DNA of 64,000 nucleotides from Rhizomicrobium sp. (GCA_035714165.1 DASTMN010000021.1:6399-70398), one strand, 5' to 3'; shown: positions 11,779-17,424, numbered from the stretch's first letter. Numbers and translations: made by a program. The notes: generated by a model not told the origin, from the letters alone.

Positions 11779-12507
11779 ATGACCAAGAAACTGGACGGCA
11801 AGATCGCGCTGGTGACCGGCGCCGCGGCGGGCATCGGCCGCGCCACCTGTGAACTGTTCGCCGCCGAAGGGGCGCGCGTGATCGCCACCGACCGCGACCT
11901 GAAGGGCCTGGACGGGCTGGACGCGGACAAGCACCAGCTTGACGTCACCGACAGCGCCGCCGTCACCGCGCTGGCGGCGCGCGTGGGGCGGGTGGATGTG
12001 CTGTTCAACTGCGCCGGTTTCGTGGAGAACGGCGCCATCCTGGATAATACCGAGGCCCAGTGGCAGAAGTCGTTCGACATAAACGTCTTCGCCATGGCCC
12101 GGATGATCACCGCCTTCATGCCCGCCATGATCGCGGGCGGCGGCGGCTCGATCATCAACGTCGCCTCGGTGGCGGGTTCGATCAAGGGCGTGCCCAACCG
12201 CTGCATCTATGGCGCCAGCAAGGCGGCGGTGATCGGCATGACCAAGGCCATCGCCGCCGATTATGTGACCAAGGGCATCCGCTGCAACACCGTCTGCCCC
12301 GGCACGGTGGATTCGCCCTCGCTGCAGCAGCGCCTGAAAGACACCGGCGACTATGAGGCGGCGCGCAAGGCCTTCACCGCCCGCCAGCCGATGGGACGGC
12401 TGGGCACGGCGGAGGAAATCGCCTCCATCGTCCTCTGGCTGGCCAGCGACGAGTCCGCCTTTGCCACCGGCCAGAACTTCATTGTGGACGGCGGCATAAC
12501 CATCTGA
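11779..12507 (+). CDS. SDR oxidoreductase (2-keto-3-deoxy-L-fuconate dehydrogenase/BDH2-like)
   Basis: TGAAAGIG, catalytic YGASK, NTVCPGTVDSPS, RQPMGRLG motifs. Confidence 0.85.
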   Translation: MTKKLDGKIALVTGAAAGIGRATCELFAAEGARVIATDRDLKGLDGLDADKHQLDVTDSAAVTALAARVGRVDVLFNCAGFVENGAILDNTEAQWQKSFDINVFAMARMITAFMPAMIAGGGGSIINVASVAGSIKGVPNRCIYGASKAAVIGMTKAIAADYVTKGIRCNTVCPGTVDSPSLQQRLKDTGDYEAARKAFTARQPMGRLGTAEEIASIVLWLASDESAFATGQNFIVDGGITI

Positions 12508-12596
12508 CACCGACGTCTTCATACTTGGTCGCACGGCCGACGGCGCGCGCCGCGCGCCTGCCCGATGCTCCCGTGGACGGCGGCATAACCATCTGA
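12484..12596 (+). repeat. 24-bp exact direct repeat (GTGGACGGCGGCATAACCATCTGA) of the SDR 3' end, flanking a 65-bp insert
   Basis: Copies at 12484-12507 and 12573-12596; the insert contains a GGCGCGC/GCGCGCC hairpin at 12542-12558. Confidence 0.9.
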
Positions 12597-12667
12597 TTTC
12601 GGCTGGGTTTCGCTGCGACATAGCGCTTGCTTGACGCCCGCGCGGCGCGGGACCACAACCTTGGGCC

Positions 12668-13021
12668 ATGCAGGGAATGCTCCACGGCCTCAAGCATCTG
12701 GCGCTGATCGCGATGATCCTGCGCGCGATGCTGCCTGCCGGCTGGATGCCCGCCTCCGCGGTTCCGGGCGAGATCGCCTTCACCATCTGCTCGGTGGACA
12801 GCGCCGCCAAGCAGCAGCATGACGCCCCTGCCCGGACGGACAATCACGACAAGCCCTGCGCCTTTACCGGCGCGCCGCAGCTTGCCGCCGCGCCCGACGC
12901 GCCCGCCCTGGCGCTTCCGGCTGTCCATGCCGCTGTCGCCGAGACCGACCGCGCCATCGCCGCGCGTATCGCGGCGCAATTCCAGCCCCATTCCCCCCGC
13001 GCCCCGCCGCTGAACGCCTGA
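12668..13021 (+). CDS. DUF2946-family leader protein with C-terminal RAPP motif (CruR/CutF-like)
   Basis: N-terminal hydrophobic segment, FTICS and KPCAF Cys motifs, Ala/Pro-rich linker, ends HSPRAPPLNA; directly upstream of a TonB-dependent receptor. Confidence 0.8.
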   Translation: MQGMLHGLKHLALIAMILRAMLPAGWMPASAVPGEIAFTICSVDSAAKQQHDAPARTDNHDKPCAFTGAPQLAAAPDAPALALPAVHAAVAETDRAIAARIAAQFQPHSPRAPPLNA

Positions 13022-13076
13022 GTTTCGCCGCCGCGCCTGTCCGCGCTGCCACTCACGTTCACACCAGGGGAATCCC

Positions 13077-15137
13077 ATGACCATTTTCGCGCGCCTGTGC
13101 GCCACCGTTTCCGTTTCCACGCTCGCTCTCGCTTCGGCGGCCCAGGCGCAAATCACCGCCGATACCGCAAGCCGCGCCGATACCGTGATCGTCACCGCCA
13201 CCGCCGATCCGGGCGATCCGGCCATCGTCGCCCAGGCGCGCGAACGCCTGTCGCGCACGCCGGGCGCGGTTTCGGTGGTCGCGGCGGAAGCCTATGAGGA
13301 CCGCCTGGCGGTCGGCCTTCCCGACCTGCTGCGCGACGTGCCGGGCGTCCTGTCCAACAAGCGCTATGGCGAGGAATCGCGCCTCTCCATCCGCGGTTCG
13401 GGCATCGACCAGTCCTATCACCAGCGTGGCGTGCTGATCGCGCAGGACGGTGTGCCCTTTGCCGATGCCGATGGCTTTTCCGACTTCCAGAAAGTGGATG
13501 CGATGGGCGCGCGCTATATCGAGGTCTACAAGGGCGGCAATGCGCTGCGCTTTGGCGGCGCCCAGCTTGGCGGCGCGGTCAACCTGGTCTCGCCCACCGG
13601 CCGCACCGCCCAGTCGCCCAACCTGCTGCGCGTGGAAGGCGGCAGCTATGGCACGCTGCGCGGCACCGGCGCGGTGGCCCGCGAATATGGCAACTGGGAT
13701 GTCTATGCCTCGGTGGAAGGCCTGCGCGCCGACGGCTATCGCATCAACTCCGCCCAGGACCAGGTGCGCGGCACCCTCAATGCCGGGTATCGCTTCGGCG
13801 CGGAACAGGATGTGCGCCTGATCCTGTATGGCGCGGACATCGACCAGCAGGTGCCGGGCACGCTGAACCTGTTCGACGCGCTGAACAATCCCAAGAATGC
13901 GGGCGCGGGTGTGGTCGCCAACAAATGGGCGCGCGACCAGCAGGTGGCCCGCGCCAGCCTGCAGACCCATTGGCGCTTCGACGAAGGACTGGTGTTCGAG
14001 GGCGGCCTCTACATGACCGGCACCGCCCTGAACCATCCCATTCCCATCGTCATCAACCAGAACATCCACACCCAGGGCGCGTTCGGCCGCTTCGACTGGA
14101 CCGGCACACTGGCGGGCCACAAGGCGGACCTGTTCGCGGGCGTTTCCTATCGCCAGGGCAGCAACAACAACCGCATTTACGTCAATGCGGGTGGTAATAA
14201 GGGCCCGCAGATCGGCGACGGCCATCAGGAAGCCAGCGGCACCGATGTCTTCGCCGAGGGGCGCTGGTTCGCCACCGACGAAATCGCGCTGGTGGCGGGC
14301 GGCTCCTGGGGCCATGCCACGCGCGACTATCGCGACAACCGCAACGCCGCGAACAATGCAGCCAAGGATTTCGACTGGTTCGCGCCGCGCATCGGCCTGC
14401 TCTGGCAGGACGAAGACGGTACCCAGGTTTACGCCAACATAACCCGTTCGGTGGAACCGCCGCATTACGGCGCGCTGGTCCAGTCGCCCTTCCCCGGCTT
14501 CGTGCCGGTGCAGGCCCAGAAGGCCTGGACGGGCGAGATCGGCACGCGCGGACGCCGCGACGCCTTCACCTGGGATGTCACCTTCTACCGGTCTGCGGTG
14601 CAGGACGAACTGCTGAGCTTTAACGCCGTCACTGGCTATCCCGCGGCCTTCTTCAATGCGGGCGACACCATCCATCAGGGCGTCGAGGCCAGCCTGGACT
14701 GGGATCTGGACGCGACGCTTCTGGGCGGGCCGCTGCGCCTGCGCCAGACCTATGCCTGGTCGGATTTCACCTTCGACAATGATCCGGTCTATCGCAACAA
14801 TCGCATGCCGGTGGTGCCGGAGCATCAGTACCGCCTGTCGCTCCATTACGAGCATCCCTCGGGCCTGTTCGTCGAACCGGCGCTGGACTGGCGCATGAAG
14901 AGCGTGTTCGTGGATTACGCCAACCGCCTCAAGGCCCCCGGCTATGCCCTGGTCAATCTGGGGCTGGGCTGGAAGCTGGAGAACGGCACCACCCTCTTCG
15001 TGGATGCGCGCAACCTGGCCGACAAGCGCTACACCGCCGAATTCGGCGCGGTCACCGACGCCGCGCTGGCGGCCACCACCGTCTTCTATCCGGGTGAGGG
15101 CCGGTCGGTCTTCGCCGGCCTCGGCTATCGTTTCTAG
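13077..15137 (+). CDS. TonB-dependent outer membrane receptor (probable copper/metallophore uptake)
   Basis: Signal peptide, TonB box DTVIVTA, plug motifs RLSIRGSG and LGGAVN, C-terminal GLGYRF; copper-associated neighbours. Confidence 0.9.
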   Translation: MTIFARLCATVSVSTLALASAAQAQITADTASRADTVIVTATADPGDPAIVAQARERLSRTPGAVSVVAAEAYEDRLAVGLPDLLRDVPGVLSNKRYGEESRLSIRGSGIDQSYHQRGVLIAQDGVPFADADGFSDFQKVDAMGARYIEVYKGGNALRFGGAQLGGAVNLVSPTGRTAQSPNLLRVEGGSYGTLRGTGAVAREYGNWDVYASVEGLRADGYRINSAQDQVRGTLNAGYRFGAEQDVRLILYGADIDQQVPGTLNLFDALNNPKNAGAGVVANKWARDQQVARASLQTHWRFDEGLVFEGGLYMTGTALNHPIPIVINQNIHTQGAFGRFDWTGTLAGHKADLFAGVSYRQGSNNNRIYVNAGGNKGPQIGDGHQEASGTDVFAEGRWFATDEIALVAGGSWGHATRDYRDNRNAANNAAKDFDWFAPRIGLLWQDEDGTQVYANITRSVEPPHYGALVQSPFPGFVPVQAQKAWTGEIGTRGRRDAFTWDVTFYRSAVQDELLSFNAVTGYPAAFFNAGDTIHQGVEASLDWDLDATLLGGPLRLRQTYAWSDFTFDNDPVYRNNRMPVVPEHQYRLSLHYEHPSGLFVEPALDWRMKSVFVDYANRLKAPGYALVNLGLGWKLENGTTLFVDARNLADKRYTAEFGAVTDAALAATTVFYPGEGRSVFAGLGYRF

Positions 15138-15146
15138 GTGGCCGTG

Positions 15147-15560
15147 ATGCGATTTGGGATTGCGGCAAGCCTCGCCCTCATCCTCGCCGCCTGCGGTCCG
15201 TCCAACAAGGCGGACCAGCAGGCGGTACAGGCTGTTCTGCACGGACTGTATGACCGGCCCGGCGCGGTTCTGGAAACCGGACCGGTGGTTGTGGAGGACG
15301 ATATCGCCGTTGCGGACTGGACGCAGGGCCGGATGGGCGGACGGGCCCTGTTGCGGCGCGGGGACAAAGGCTGGCGCCTGACGCTGTGCAGCGGGGATGC
15401 GCTTCGCAGCAAGGCTGGCCTGATGGAATTGGGCGTACCTCAAGCACAGGCCGAAGCGCTGGAGCGGCAGCTTCACGCCGCCGAGGCGAAGGTCGCTCCG
15501 GAACGGCTGAAAATGATGGCCGCGTTCCGGGGCGTCATGCGGATGGAGGAACAGCCATGA
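15147..15560 (+). CDS. Copper-uptake-system-associated lipoprotein
   Basis: Lipobox LAAC; DRP....L...PVVVE.D.AVA.W.QG..GGRALLRR....W...LCSGD pattern that I recognise from proteins encoded beside PCuAC/methanobactin-type receptors. Confidence 0.7.
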   Translation: MRFGIAASLALILAACGPSNKADQQAVQAVLHGLYDRPGAVLETGPVVVEDDIAVADWTQGRMGGRALLRRGDKGWRLTLCSGDALRSKAGLMELGVPQAQAEALERQLHAAEAKVAPERLKMMAAFRGVMRMEEQP

Positions 15561-15805
15561 TCCAGCCTGGACGCAACATGCCGCATCAGGCTGCCCCGGT
15601 TCACTTCATTGCCGACCTGCCACTGCCGCGCCGGGCTATCAACGCCCTGACCAGGGGTGGCATCTTCACGCTGGAAGAGGCGGCCGCCTGGCGCGATGAA
15701 GAACTTTTGTCCCTGCCGCAATGTGGCCCCGCCGCGGTGGCAAAATTGCGGGTGCTGATGGATCATCATATTCCTGTCGAACCGGAGATTTCCCCATGCG
15801 CCTGA
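15557..15805 (+). CDS. Stand-alone RNA polymerase alpha-subunit C-terminal-domain-like (helix-hairpin-helix) protein, 82 aa
   Basis: ATGA overlap with the upstream gene and GGAGGA RBS. IADLPLPRRAINALTRGGIFTLEE...EELLSLPQCGP aligns with alpha-CTD VDDLELTVRSANCL...I..IGDL...ELLKTPNLGK. Confidence 0.72.
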   Translation: MIQPGRNMPHQAAPVHFIADLPLPRRAINALTRGGIFTLEEAAAWRDEELLSLPQCGPAAVAKLRVLMDHHIPVEPEISPCA

Positions 15806-16236
15806 CCCTGGAACACCTGCACCTGGCCATCGCCGCCCTGTTTCTGCTGGTAAGCGCACCGGGCGCGCATGCCGCCGGTACCACCGCCAATGTCGGCATC
15901 CGCGACGGCTGGTTCCGCGCCCTGCCGCCCTCCGTGCCGTCGGGCGGCTATTTCACCCTTCGCAACGGGAGCGGCGCGGCCGTGACCCTGACCGGGGTCG
16001 AAAGCCCCGGCTGCGGCAGTATGATGATGCACAAGAGCGGCCCAGGCGGCATGGAGCACATATCGGAGCTGACGGTTCCGGCGGGCGGCACCCAGGCCTT
16101 CGCGCCGGGCGGCTATCACCTGATGTGCATGGCGTCCCGGCTGGCGCCGGGCACGTCCGTGCCGGTGACGCTGATCTTCAAGGATGGCGGCAAGGTCACC
16201 GTGCCGTTCCAGGTGCGGAGCGCCACCGGCAAATAG
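15796..16236 (+). CDS. Periplasmic copper chaperone PCu(A)C
   Basis: Signal peptide; GWFRA, GYFTL.N, MMHKS...GMEH, PGGYHLM motifs; GGAG RBS. Confidence 0.88.
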   Translation: MRLTLEHLHLAIAALFLLVSAPGAHAAGTTANVGIRDGWFRALPPSVPSGGYFTLRNGSGAAVTLTGVESPGCGSMMMHKSGPGGMEHISELTVPAGGTQAFAPGGYHLMCMASRLAPGTSVPVTLIFKDGGKVTVPFQVRSATGK

Positions 16237-16244
16237 CGGCATGG

Positions 16245-16281
16245 CATGGTGCGGCCATCGCTGCTAGGACGCCGCACCATG
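16245..16281 (+). promoter_or_regulatory. 11-bp perfect hairpin whose 3' arm contains the mntP start codon
   Basis: CATGGTGCGGC (16245-16255) pairs with GCCGCACCATG (16271-16281); 15-nt loop contains AGGA. Confidence 0.6.
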
Positions 16282-16839
16282 AGCCTTGTCGCCATCCTCT
16301 TCCTGGCCCTCAGCATGTCCGCCGACGCCTTTGCCGCGGCGCTGGGCAAGGGCGCGGCGCTGCACAGGCCCCGCCTGGCCGAGGCGCTGCGGATCGGGCT
16401 GATTTTCGGCGGCATCGAAACCCTCACCCCGTTGATCGGATGGCTGCTGGGCCGGGCCGCCAGCGGCTATGTCGAGGCGTTCGATCACTGGATCGCCTTC
16501 GGCCTGCTGCTGGGCATCGGCGGCAAGATGATCTGGGAAAGCCTGAAGCGGGACGCCGCGGCGGAAAAGCCCCAGCGCCATTCCTTTCTCCTGCTGGCCC
16601 TGACGGCGGTGGGCACCAGCATTGACGCACTGGCCGTGGGTGTGACCCTGGCGCTGGTGGACGCTAACATCCTGGTCAACGCGCTGGCCATCGGCGCGGC
16701 CACCTTCACCATGACCACCATCGGCGTGATGGCGGGCCATGCGTTGGGATCGCGGTTCGGCAAATGGGCGGAAGGGATCGGCGGCCTGATCCTGATCGTG
16801 ATCGGCGCGCATATCCTGGCGCAGCACCTGTCGGCCTGA
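16279..16839 (+). CDS. mntP: Manganese efflux pump MntP
   Basis: Two DUF204 repeats with signatures [11 protein letters not shown] and TSIDALAVG; FG..E...PLIG and DHWIAF motifs. Confidence 0.9.
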
Positions 16840-16851
16840 CACCCCGGAGGT

Positions 16852-17424
16852 TCAGGACTGGCGGAAGCGGCCTTCCAGGCGGGCGATCATTTCGGCGGGT
16901 GTGAAGCCCAGCGCATCCAGCCGGCCGGACCGGGCGAACAGCGCCAGGCCCGCCAGCGAGGCCGCCAGCAGCACCACATCGCACTGGCTTTCGCGGTTGC
17001 CGGTGGGCATGCCGCCCGCGTCCGACAGCGCCTTGAGCGCCGCGATCAGGCGGCCGTTGAAAAGACGTTCGGCATCACCGCCCTGCGATCCGTTCAGCGC
17101 GCCGGAGGCGGCCGCCATGGTTTCGGCCCCGCGCAGCAGGTCCAGCGCGGCGATGCCCGCGCCCTGCAACCCGCCAGCCCCGCGCATCACCCGCGCCAGT
17201 GCCGACAGGTCGTCTGCGGCCAGCGCCAGCAGCAATTCATCCTTGTTGCGGAAATAGCCGTACAGCGCGGCGGGCGCGAAGCCCGCCTCGGCGGCGACGC
17301 CCCGCAGCGACAGGTCGCGCGCCCCGTCACGGGCGGCGACGCGGCGGGCGGCATCCAGGATGGCGACGCGGGAGGCTGCCTTGGTGCGGCGCGGCCTGGG
17401 CGTCTGGAGAGCGGCTTCCGACAT
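16852..17424 (-). CDS. TetR/AcrR family regulator
   Basis: HTH LSLRGVAAEAGFAPAALYGYFRNKDEL. Confidence 0.88.
   Translation of the reverse strand: MSEAALQTPRPRRTKAASRVAILDAARRVAARDGARDLSLRGVAAEAGFAPAALYGYFRNKDELLLALAADDLSALARVMRGAGGLQGAGIAALDLLRGAETMAAASGALNGSQGGDAERLFNGRLIAALKALSDAGGMPTGNRESQCDVVLLAASLAGLALFARSGRLDALGFTPAEMIARLEGRFRQS

Follow-up and report, generated by a model that had tools for sequence, protein, structure and literature searches.

How bacteria take up copper is still poorly known. Operons of the CruR-CrtA type, described as recently as 2022-2026, are controlled at a stage later than transcription initiation: the leader CruR senses copper and governs termination by Rho upstream of Bordetella CrtA (PMC9426467; PMC12914433). 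In Bordetella pertussis the operon consists of cruR-crtA-bp2921 (PMC9426467; PMC12914433), termination by Rho at cruR was enhanced in vitro by NusA and NusG (PMC9426467), and genes for PCuAC and ScoI have been reported in a few crtA operons (PMC12914433). Small regulators encoded within metal-uptake operons are known from another setting, that of HemP/HmuP/ChuP, cytoplasmic proteins encoded in TonB-dependent heme-uptake operons (PMC9131926). Here we describe a gene of Rhizomicrobium sp. that lies in an operon resembling the CruR-CrtA type and encodes an 82-residue protein related to the C-terminal domain of the RNA polymerase alpha subunit (alpha-CTD; Pfam PF03118, RNA_pol_A_CTD). It was studied in a stretch of 64,000 nucleotides (GCA_035714165.1, DASTMN010000021.1:6399-70398), which as a whole we call the window. 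The domain is known, and stand-alone copies of it are annotated and uncharacterised; what is new is a subfamily under purifying selection whose genes are fixed in copper-uptake operons of the CruR type, along with a sister subfamily at other metal-linked loci. An alpha-CTD-like gene in CruR-type operons is mentioned in neither PMC9426467 nor PMC12914433, and a literature search on stand-alone alpha-CTD proteins and on PF03118 outside RpoA gave nothing relevant, in agreement with a first-pass annotation, made from the sequence alone, whose author knew of no described system of this kind.

The 82-residue open reading frame is a genuine gene, and its product has the double helix-hairpin-helix fold of an alpha-CTD. 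Its signals could all be read in the sequence as that annotation had given them: a strong ribosome-binding site (GGAGGA), an ATGA overlap in which the ATG meets the TGA (15558-15560) of the lipoprotein gene upstream, and a 10-nt overlap (15796-15805) with the PCuAC gene downstream. The absence of a signal peptide also stands, since the protein has no hydrophobic segment (the highest grand average of hydropathy over 15 residues is 1.03). Against PF03118 it scores 24.4 bits, narrowly above the gathering score of 23.8 (E = 2.4e-5). Its relatives match the same family at E <= 0.01 in 37 of 37 cases, i.e., 26/26 of those from copper operons (best E 3.9e-9) and 11/11 of the sister type described below (best E 5.1e-11). 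An AlphaFold2 model, obtained with the family alignment as input, has a four-helix core (residues 25-33, 39-44, 47-52 and 58-71), with block confidence values (pLDDT) of 86-89 over residues 21-70; residues 1-19 and 69-82 are variable and modelled with low confidence. When the model was compared with the Protein Data Bank (PDB) using Foldseek, the top 50 matches were all RNA polymerase alpha subunits or complexes with them, and a profile search of the PDB sequences returned alpha subunits as well. Superposition on solved alpha-CTDs gave root-mean-square deviations of 1.2-1.8 Å over 55-57 residues and target-normalised TM scores of up to 0.85. The alignment with alpha-CTD proposed from the sequence thus holds both for the profile, if by a small margin, and for the predicted structure.

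The protein is also maintained by selection. From 5.8 billion proteins we gathered 28 relatives of 62-82 aa, of which 26 were aligned. Across a sequence divergence of about 50%, 19 residues are invariant (L21, L23, R25, R26, I28, N29, A30, L31, G34, G35, W45, D47, L50, L51, S52, L53, P54, Q55 and G57). The ratio of nonsynonymous to synonymous substitution rates (dN/dS), computed over the 47-codon core between the window gene and 17 loci, ranges from 0.06 to 0.40, with synonymous sites often near saturation. There may be transcription as well: low-depth short contigs from wastewater and biofilm runs labelled as metatranscriptomes span 15296-15641 and 15652-15884, a faint indication of transcription, given that DNA carry-over is possible. 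Our scan found no internal terminator on the operon strand from cruR to PCuAC. The only promoter-like matches there, at 14773-14801, within the coding sequence of the TonB-dependent transporter (TBDT), and at 15998-16025, within that of PCuAC, were judged unconvincing.

The protein is not an RpoA. It scores 15.5 bits against TIGR02027 (cutoff 227.8) and consists of the domain alone in 82 aa, while RpoA has an N-terminal dimerisation and assembly domain, a linker and a total of about 300-340 aa. RpoA is moreover encoded in the ribosomal-protein/rpoA cluster, whereas this gene lies in a copper-uptake operon. What the two share is the fold, the PF03118 match and the positions corresponding to R265, N268, G296 and, in similar form, N294 of E. 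coli alpha-CTD (residues ~250-329). Residues were mapped with hmmalign against E. coli alpha 250-329, which pairs R265 with R26, N268 with N29, L295 with C56, G296 with G57, K298 with A59 and S299 with A60. The first-pass annotation was therefore exact in stating that the equivalents of R265, N268 and G296 are kept, that K298 and S299 have become Ala, and that a Cys sits in the hairpin. R26, N29 and G57 are invariant among the relatives, as is Q55 at the position of N294, and position 25, in place of V264, is always basic (R or K). Judged by this alignment, three of the six residues of the 265 determinant (R265, N268, C269, G296, K298, S299) are kept, C269 being replaced by A30; K297 is lost too, and K271 and K291 are replaced. 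The 261 determinant (D258, D259, E261), which contacts sigma, is absent: E261 corresponds to the nearly invariant P22, and positions 258 and 259 are variable. Two invariants are specific to the family, W45 at the position of R284 and D47 at that of E286, the latter of which may simply cap the following helix. Its net charge is close to neutral and in this resembles that of E. coli alpha-CTD. In terms of sequence, the scaffold thus appears to be retained along with half of the residues that face the DNA. The first-pass annotation had envisaged an alpha-CTD mimic that could titrate activators or UP elements under copper limitation; with Pro in place of E261 and with K297, K298 and S299 gone, the protein does not faithfully reproduce the surfaces of the cell's own alpha-CTD on which activators and sigma dock.

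The gene recurs in the same place across a lineage. Some 20 distinct loci carry a copper-type gene, all in uncultured Alphaproteobacteria. On every readable contig it lies between a TBDT gene and a gene for PCuAC or YcnI/DUF1775, and a DUF2946 leader heads the operon wherever the upstream flank is long enough. Recurrence beside copper genes, on which the first-pass annotation had made its case depend, is hence well established. Such loci are rare: ten were found among 185,579 GTDB species genomes, all in uncultured alphaproteobacterial metagenome-assembled genomes; a metagenome scan added 8 further loci, all with the same operon, and a tblastn search of PLSDB returned no plasmid carriers. DNA of the organism is present in soil, sludge and wastewater metagenomes. 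The surroundings of the gene vary considerably. The transporter position is filled by two unrelated types of TBDT (~26% identity), and the orthologues of the window TBDT in L001-L006, L012 and L013 are 79-98% identical to it. Between the TBDT gene and the alpha-CTD-like gene there can be a lipoprotein of family NF033672 (window, L004, L013), YcnI (L001-3, L012, L024, L029-30) or nothing (L007-9 and others), and elsewhere YcnI is found after the alpha-CTD-like gene (L015, L016, L020, L021). L004/L013 and L024/L025 have different flanking genes. The gene can persist without PCuAC, because L032 (1-2750), with the order TBDT, alpha-CTD-like gene, MntP, kept it after PCuAC was lost.

Two observations concern how these loci change. 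The window segment 15151-15613 and L001:5518-6027 are non-homologous, the former carrying the NF033672 lipoprotein gene and the latter a DUF1775/YcnI gene, and the DNA on the two sides is 98.8% and 97.1% identical between the window and L001-L003. The breakpoint falls within the variable N-terminus of the alpha-CTD-like gene, and the alpha-CTD-like and PCuAC proteins are 88-90% identical to those of L001-L003 as against 98-100% for the flanks. A non-homologous segment, nearly identical flanks and a diverged pair of proteins together point to a recombinational cassette swap, in which one kind of periplasmic copper-binding protein was exchanged for another. In L024, L025 and the JGI 3300056388 contig of P0040, where the cluster order is TBDT-YcnI-alpha-CTD-like-PCuAC(-Sco1), the cluster adjoins a tandem run of three genes for tyrosine recombinases and one for an ArdC-like protein. 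This neighbourhood suggests carriage by an integrative mobile element.

Table 1. Features of the operon and its neighbours in the window (positions counted from its first letter), and palindromes of the sister loci (positions within each locus).
Feature	Position	Strand	Basis and details
Alpha-CTD-like gene, 82 aa	15557..15805	+	ORF reading; ATG at 15557
Ribosome-binding site GGAGGA of the alpha-CTD-like gene	15544..15549	+	Sequence; 7 nt before the ATG
Conserved core, residues 21-67, double helix-hairpin-helix	15617..15757	+	Alignment, AlphaFold2 model and superposition
Putative operon promoter	12613..12659	+	Read from sequence; promoter function inferred
cruR-like leader gene, DUF2946, 117 aa	12668..13021	+	Pfam DUF2946, 24.1 vs 23.7 bits
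TonB-dependent outer-membrane transporter, 686 aa	13077..15137	+	Pfam Plug and TonB_dep_Rec_b-barrel
"Copper uptake system-associated protein" lipoprotein, 140 aa from GTG, lipobox LAAC	15138..15560	+	NF033672
PCuAC periplasmic copper chaperone, 146 aa, signal peptide	15796..16236	+	Pfam PCuAC, 100 bits
MntP-family gene, conserved downstream neighbour	16246..16839	+	Pfam Mntp; synteny in most loci; candidate operon member
TetR-family regulator, conserved convergent neighbour	16852..17424	-	Pfam TetR_N; synteny
A+T-rich palindromes of the sister loci	L022:5362-5384; L023:5492-5508; L026:5470-5492; L027:5742-5758; L028:5941-5957		

The head of the operon (Table 1) compares closely with that of CruR-CrtA: a DUF2946 leader ending near a C-terminal RAPP motif, a skew of C over G, and then a TBDT. 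The RAPP arrest motif occupies leader residues 111-114, three residues from the C-terminus, and is kept in 11 orthologues. The skew over 12773-13240 (GC skew -0.19 to -0.32) resembles the Rho-utilisation "bubble" of Bordetella CruR, which spans the end of the leader and the intergenic region. The leader differs in its cysteines. In CruR a copper-sensing CXXC, reported to be invariant, precedes RAPP by about 45 residues; in the window leader a single conserved Cys (C64) stands 46 residues upstream of RAPP, the first Cys position is taken by another residue, and the sequence reads H60-x3-C64, a His standing 3-4 residues upstream of this Cys in most orthologues. The window operon also differs in having no PepSY_TM gene. 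The CrtA subfamily is marked by a conserved ligand site and an invariant His; the window transporter was scored against the generic Plug and barrel Pfam domains. The lipoprotein upstream of the alpha-CTD-like gene scores 124 bits against NF033672 (cutoff 50), and the GGAG ribosome-binding site (15783-15786) and the ATG of PCuAC lie inside the tail of the alpha-CTD-like gene. In the putative promoter, CTGCGACATAGCG (12613-12625) abuts a -35-like TTGACG (12631-12636), followed after a 17-nt spacer by a -10-like CACAAC (12654-12659). The CTGCGACATAGCG element occurs once in the window; orthologous loci keep it, together with TTGAC, ahead of cruR, in many cases in the form of two direct TGCGRCAAACCG repeats. 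It is a candidate operator or activator site. Such TGCGRCAAACCG repeats are spaced 28-43 bp from start to start in L008:3223-3264, L015:2200-2239 and L019:2185-2239. The leader mRNA may be leaderless, because the cruR ATG comes 9 nt after the end of the -10-like hexamer and there is no ribosome-binding site. Further upstream, a 24-nt direct repeat (12484-12507 and 12573-12596) corresponds to the last codons of an SDR gene and flanks a 65-nt GC-rich insert with a GC palindrome; similar inserts are present in L001, L008 and L012. It may be a small insertion with target duplication or a terminator-like element.

The alpha-CTD module is clearly in wide use outside RpoA. A profile search of 1.84 billion representatives yielded 1123 matches in two groups, and PF03118 domains outside RpoA occur in more than 1000 representative clusters. 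The free-standing alpha-CTD on which the first-pass annotation placed weight is real here, while the architecture as such is not unusual. The first group comprises proteins of 300-2200 aa with 2-11 tandem copies of PF03118 (P0029-P0062, none in the window), some of them fused to Sigma70_r4, HARE-HTH, Mrr/ResIII helicase, restriction or SAP domains. Like these and like the small stand-alone "hypothetical protein" family NF005841 (PRK07758), all uncharacterised, the window protein carries the module outside the polymerase; it is not a member of NF005841, because its 24.5 bits fall short of the cutoff of 115. None of these other carriers turned up in a metal-uptake operon, although no analysis of their contexts was made. 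The second group is the sister subfamily, with 112 clusters of proteins of 62-138 aa and the motif KRAxNAL...EWSDRDLLSLPHFGP, some of whose members PGAP names "alpha C-terminal domain-containing protein".

The sister members lie outside copper operons, and their surroundings are metal-linked: a SIP reductase, a FecIR-TBDT, a multicopper oxidase and a Fur-like gene in L022, a multicopper oxidase in L026, an Fe-type ABC importer in L027, and a heme-copper oxidase operon with SURF1 in L028. In 3 of 5 loci the gene directly follows one for a cytoplasmic protein of 156-162 aa (L022:5424-5897, L023:5523-6011, L026:5531-6001), of which L023 (4966-5454) and L026 (4923-5429) also encode divergent paralogues. 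This partner family (~157 aa) has 90 clusters, about 17 of them on contigs of the same size as those of alpha-CTD-like matches. It has no Pfam assignment, shares the invariants W26, R27, R70, D86, E87, Q98 and W111, and is modelled by AlphaFold2 as five helices (pLDDT 85); the fold has no PDB match (best TM score 0.35) and no sequence match, and thus gives no functional clue. A remnant of a partner gene lies at L027:5800-5960, between the palindrome and the alpha-CTD-like gene, and it reflects an internal deletion, because an N-terminal "FGYGEHLL" is joined to a C-terminal "...ALPPIDPPTTCERQPAVA". In all five sister loci an A+T-rich palindrome, TTGCGA-N5/11-TCGCAA, covers the promoters (Table 1), and similar boxes occur between the Fur-like gene and the TBDT gene of L022 (11747-11875). 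It is probably the box of a metal-responsive repressor; the literature searched offered no usable Fur-box consensus for Alphaproteobacteria. No DNA motif is shared between copper-type and sister loci, the copper promoters having CTGCGRCA(A/T)A(C/G)CG beside the -35 box. The metal-linked loci and the palindrome suggest that the whole family is wired to metal-responsive expression.

How might such a protein act? Our preferred reading, to which we give a probability of roughly 0.4, is that it is a trans-acting factor of alpha-CTD fold, co-made with the copper-uptake proteins, whose binding to promoter-proximal DNA or to the transcription complex feeds back on expression. Having neither the alpha N-terminal domain nor the linker, it cannot serve as a subunit of RNA polymerase, which leaves only action in trans. 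With the order cruR leader, TBDT, periplasmic copper-binding protein, alpha-CTD-like gene and PCuAC, translationally coupled, the protein would be made only once a CruR-type attenuator has opened, the state expected when copper is limiting. This timing is argued by analogy, because the features of CruR are shared but the CXXC is not kept. The binding face would be formed by the equivalents of minor-groove and backbone contacts (R26, N29, Q55, G57) together with the additional basic position 25, and the bound DNA or transcription complex would provide the feedback on copper-limitation genes. The protein would then be a small regulator inside an uptake operon rather than a metal sensor. HemP/HmuP/ChuP offer the same logic, being of ~60-80 aa, lacking a signal peptide and co-encoded with outer-membrane metal uptake. 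They act on the expression of the uptake system, as the window protein might by analogy; fold and metal differ, and there is no sequence relation (a Pfam scan at E <= 1 returned PF03118 alone). In favour of this reading, the operon position is constant despite differences in TBDT type, periplasmic neighbour and flanking genome.

Several points weigh against a DNA- or polymerase-directed regulator. Monomeric alpha-CTD has little sequence specificity. The loss of K297, K298 and S299, combined with a near-neutral charge, means that DNA binding is not assured, and W45 and D47 may have a structural part, such as capping a helix, instead of forming a binding surface. Any tie between the element beside the -35 and the alpha-CTD-like protein would be conjecture. 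The window contains neither a second alpha-CTD-like copy nor a gene for the 157-aa partner, and the absence of the latter implies that the two subfamilies may work differently. Finally, every known carrier is an uncultured metagenome-assembled genome.

The alternatives in which the protein has no dealings with transcription fare worse. A spurious or decaying frame would be in keeping with its small size, with a score that taken alone only just exceeds the Pfam threshold, and with confinement to a rare uncultured lineage. Such a frame would not be expected to show purifying selection and 19 residues held over ~50% divergence, to fold confidently, or to be kept through several rearrangements of the operon, and conservation refutes this explanation as far as computation can go; we give it almost no weight. 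The first-pass annotation had suggested metal sensing through the hairpin Cys and a His-His tail, and the window protein does contain C56, H70, H71 and C81 with which copper might be bound and the protein switched. Yet position 56 is Phe in 21 of the 26 copper-type relatives, the Cys being restricted to the closest clade of the window, and 14 of the 26 lack Cys altogether. As for the tail, its residues are set by the ribosome-binding site and ATG of PCuAC, which overlap it: the window tail "EPEISPCA" is the PCuAC GGAG and ATG read in another frame, and the terminal "EH" of most relatives is likewise GGAGCAY-TGA-c-ATG. The "EH" was considered as a metal ligand and rejected, as it overlaps the start signals of the next gene and as four of the five loci with no gene directly following lack the terminal His (the fifth, L027, ends in Asp-His). 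With a non-conserved Cys and a tail that is a by-product of the PCuAC signals, neither serves as evidence of metal sensing, which we consider most improbable. More can be said for a helper outside transcription, either an adaptor that targets or holds pre-PCuAC or pre-YcnI or a frame that mainly couples PCuAC translation: the gene almost always stands directly before PCuAC or YcnI and is translationally coupled to it, with its stop 1-10 nt from the next start and the next ribosome-binding site inside its tail. A coupling spacer, however, needs neither the invariant residues nor a dN/dS of ~0.1-0.3. Furthermore, L032 retains the gene without PCuAC, and sister members occur in loci with no adjoining exported copper protein. 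Nor is the alpha-CTD/helix-hairpin-helix fold known to act as a chaperone. We regard a helper as very unlikely.

An explanation closer to the preferred one, and unlikely rather than improbable, keeps the protein at the transcription machinery while replacing its DNA target by a protein. The free domain would be a decoy, or a modulator of elongation or termination, that binds a protein on which alpha-CTD docks, such as an activator or the AR2 domain of NusA; acting on NusA, it could alter Rho-dependent termination at the cruR attenuator and thereby produce positive feedback. NusA-AR2 binds alpha-CTD with a Kd < 5 µM, and its occupancy releases the autoinhibition of NusA and has been proposed to block Rho recruitment (PMC4937328). 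That the fold is the same as that of alpha-CTD, that the operon head resembles the Rho-dependent attenuator of CruR, and that Rho termination at Bordetella cruR is enhanced by NusA and NusG in vitro (PMC9426467) all fit. The known protein-contact determinants, on the other hand, are lost (E261 is Pro; K271, K291, K297 and K298 are replaced), and sister members are found in loci without cruR.

A broader and decidedly speculative proposal, which we hold to be quite unlikely, would join these elements: free alpha-CTD paralogues could form a hitherto overlooked class of effectors of metal limitation, directed at the transcription machinery as such and not at one operator. The copper protein would bind NusA or a paused elongation complex, or compete with the polymerase alpha-CTD at promoter-proximal DNA, so that once the CruR attenuator has opened, read-through past Rho termination or use of the promoter would be strengthened. 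In Fur-type regulons the sister subfamily would have the equivalent role, jointly with its 157-aa partner, whose fold is new.

All known carriers are uncultured, which restricts immediate testing. Even so, one lineage has kept in its copper operon, through several rearrangements, a copy of the domain with which the polymerase docks at promoters and activators, and this points to one more layer that ties metal limitation to the transcription apparatus. Should DNA, NusA or RNA polymerase prove to be its target, the protein would be the first trans-acting alpha-CTD paralogue with a known function, and could help to explain why PF03118 domains occur so widely outside RpoA. Should it be a simple operon-specific DNA-binding protein, it would still represent a new family of small regulators for copper and iron uptake.

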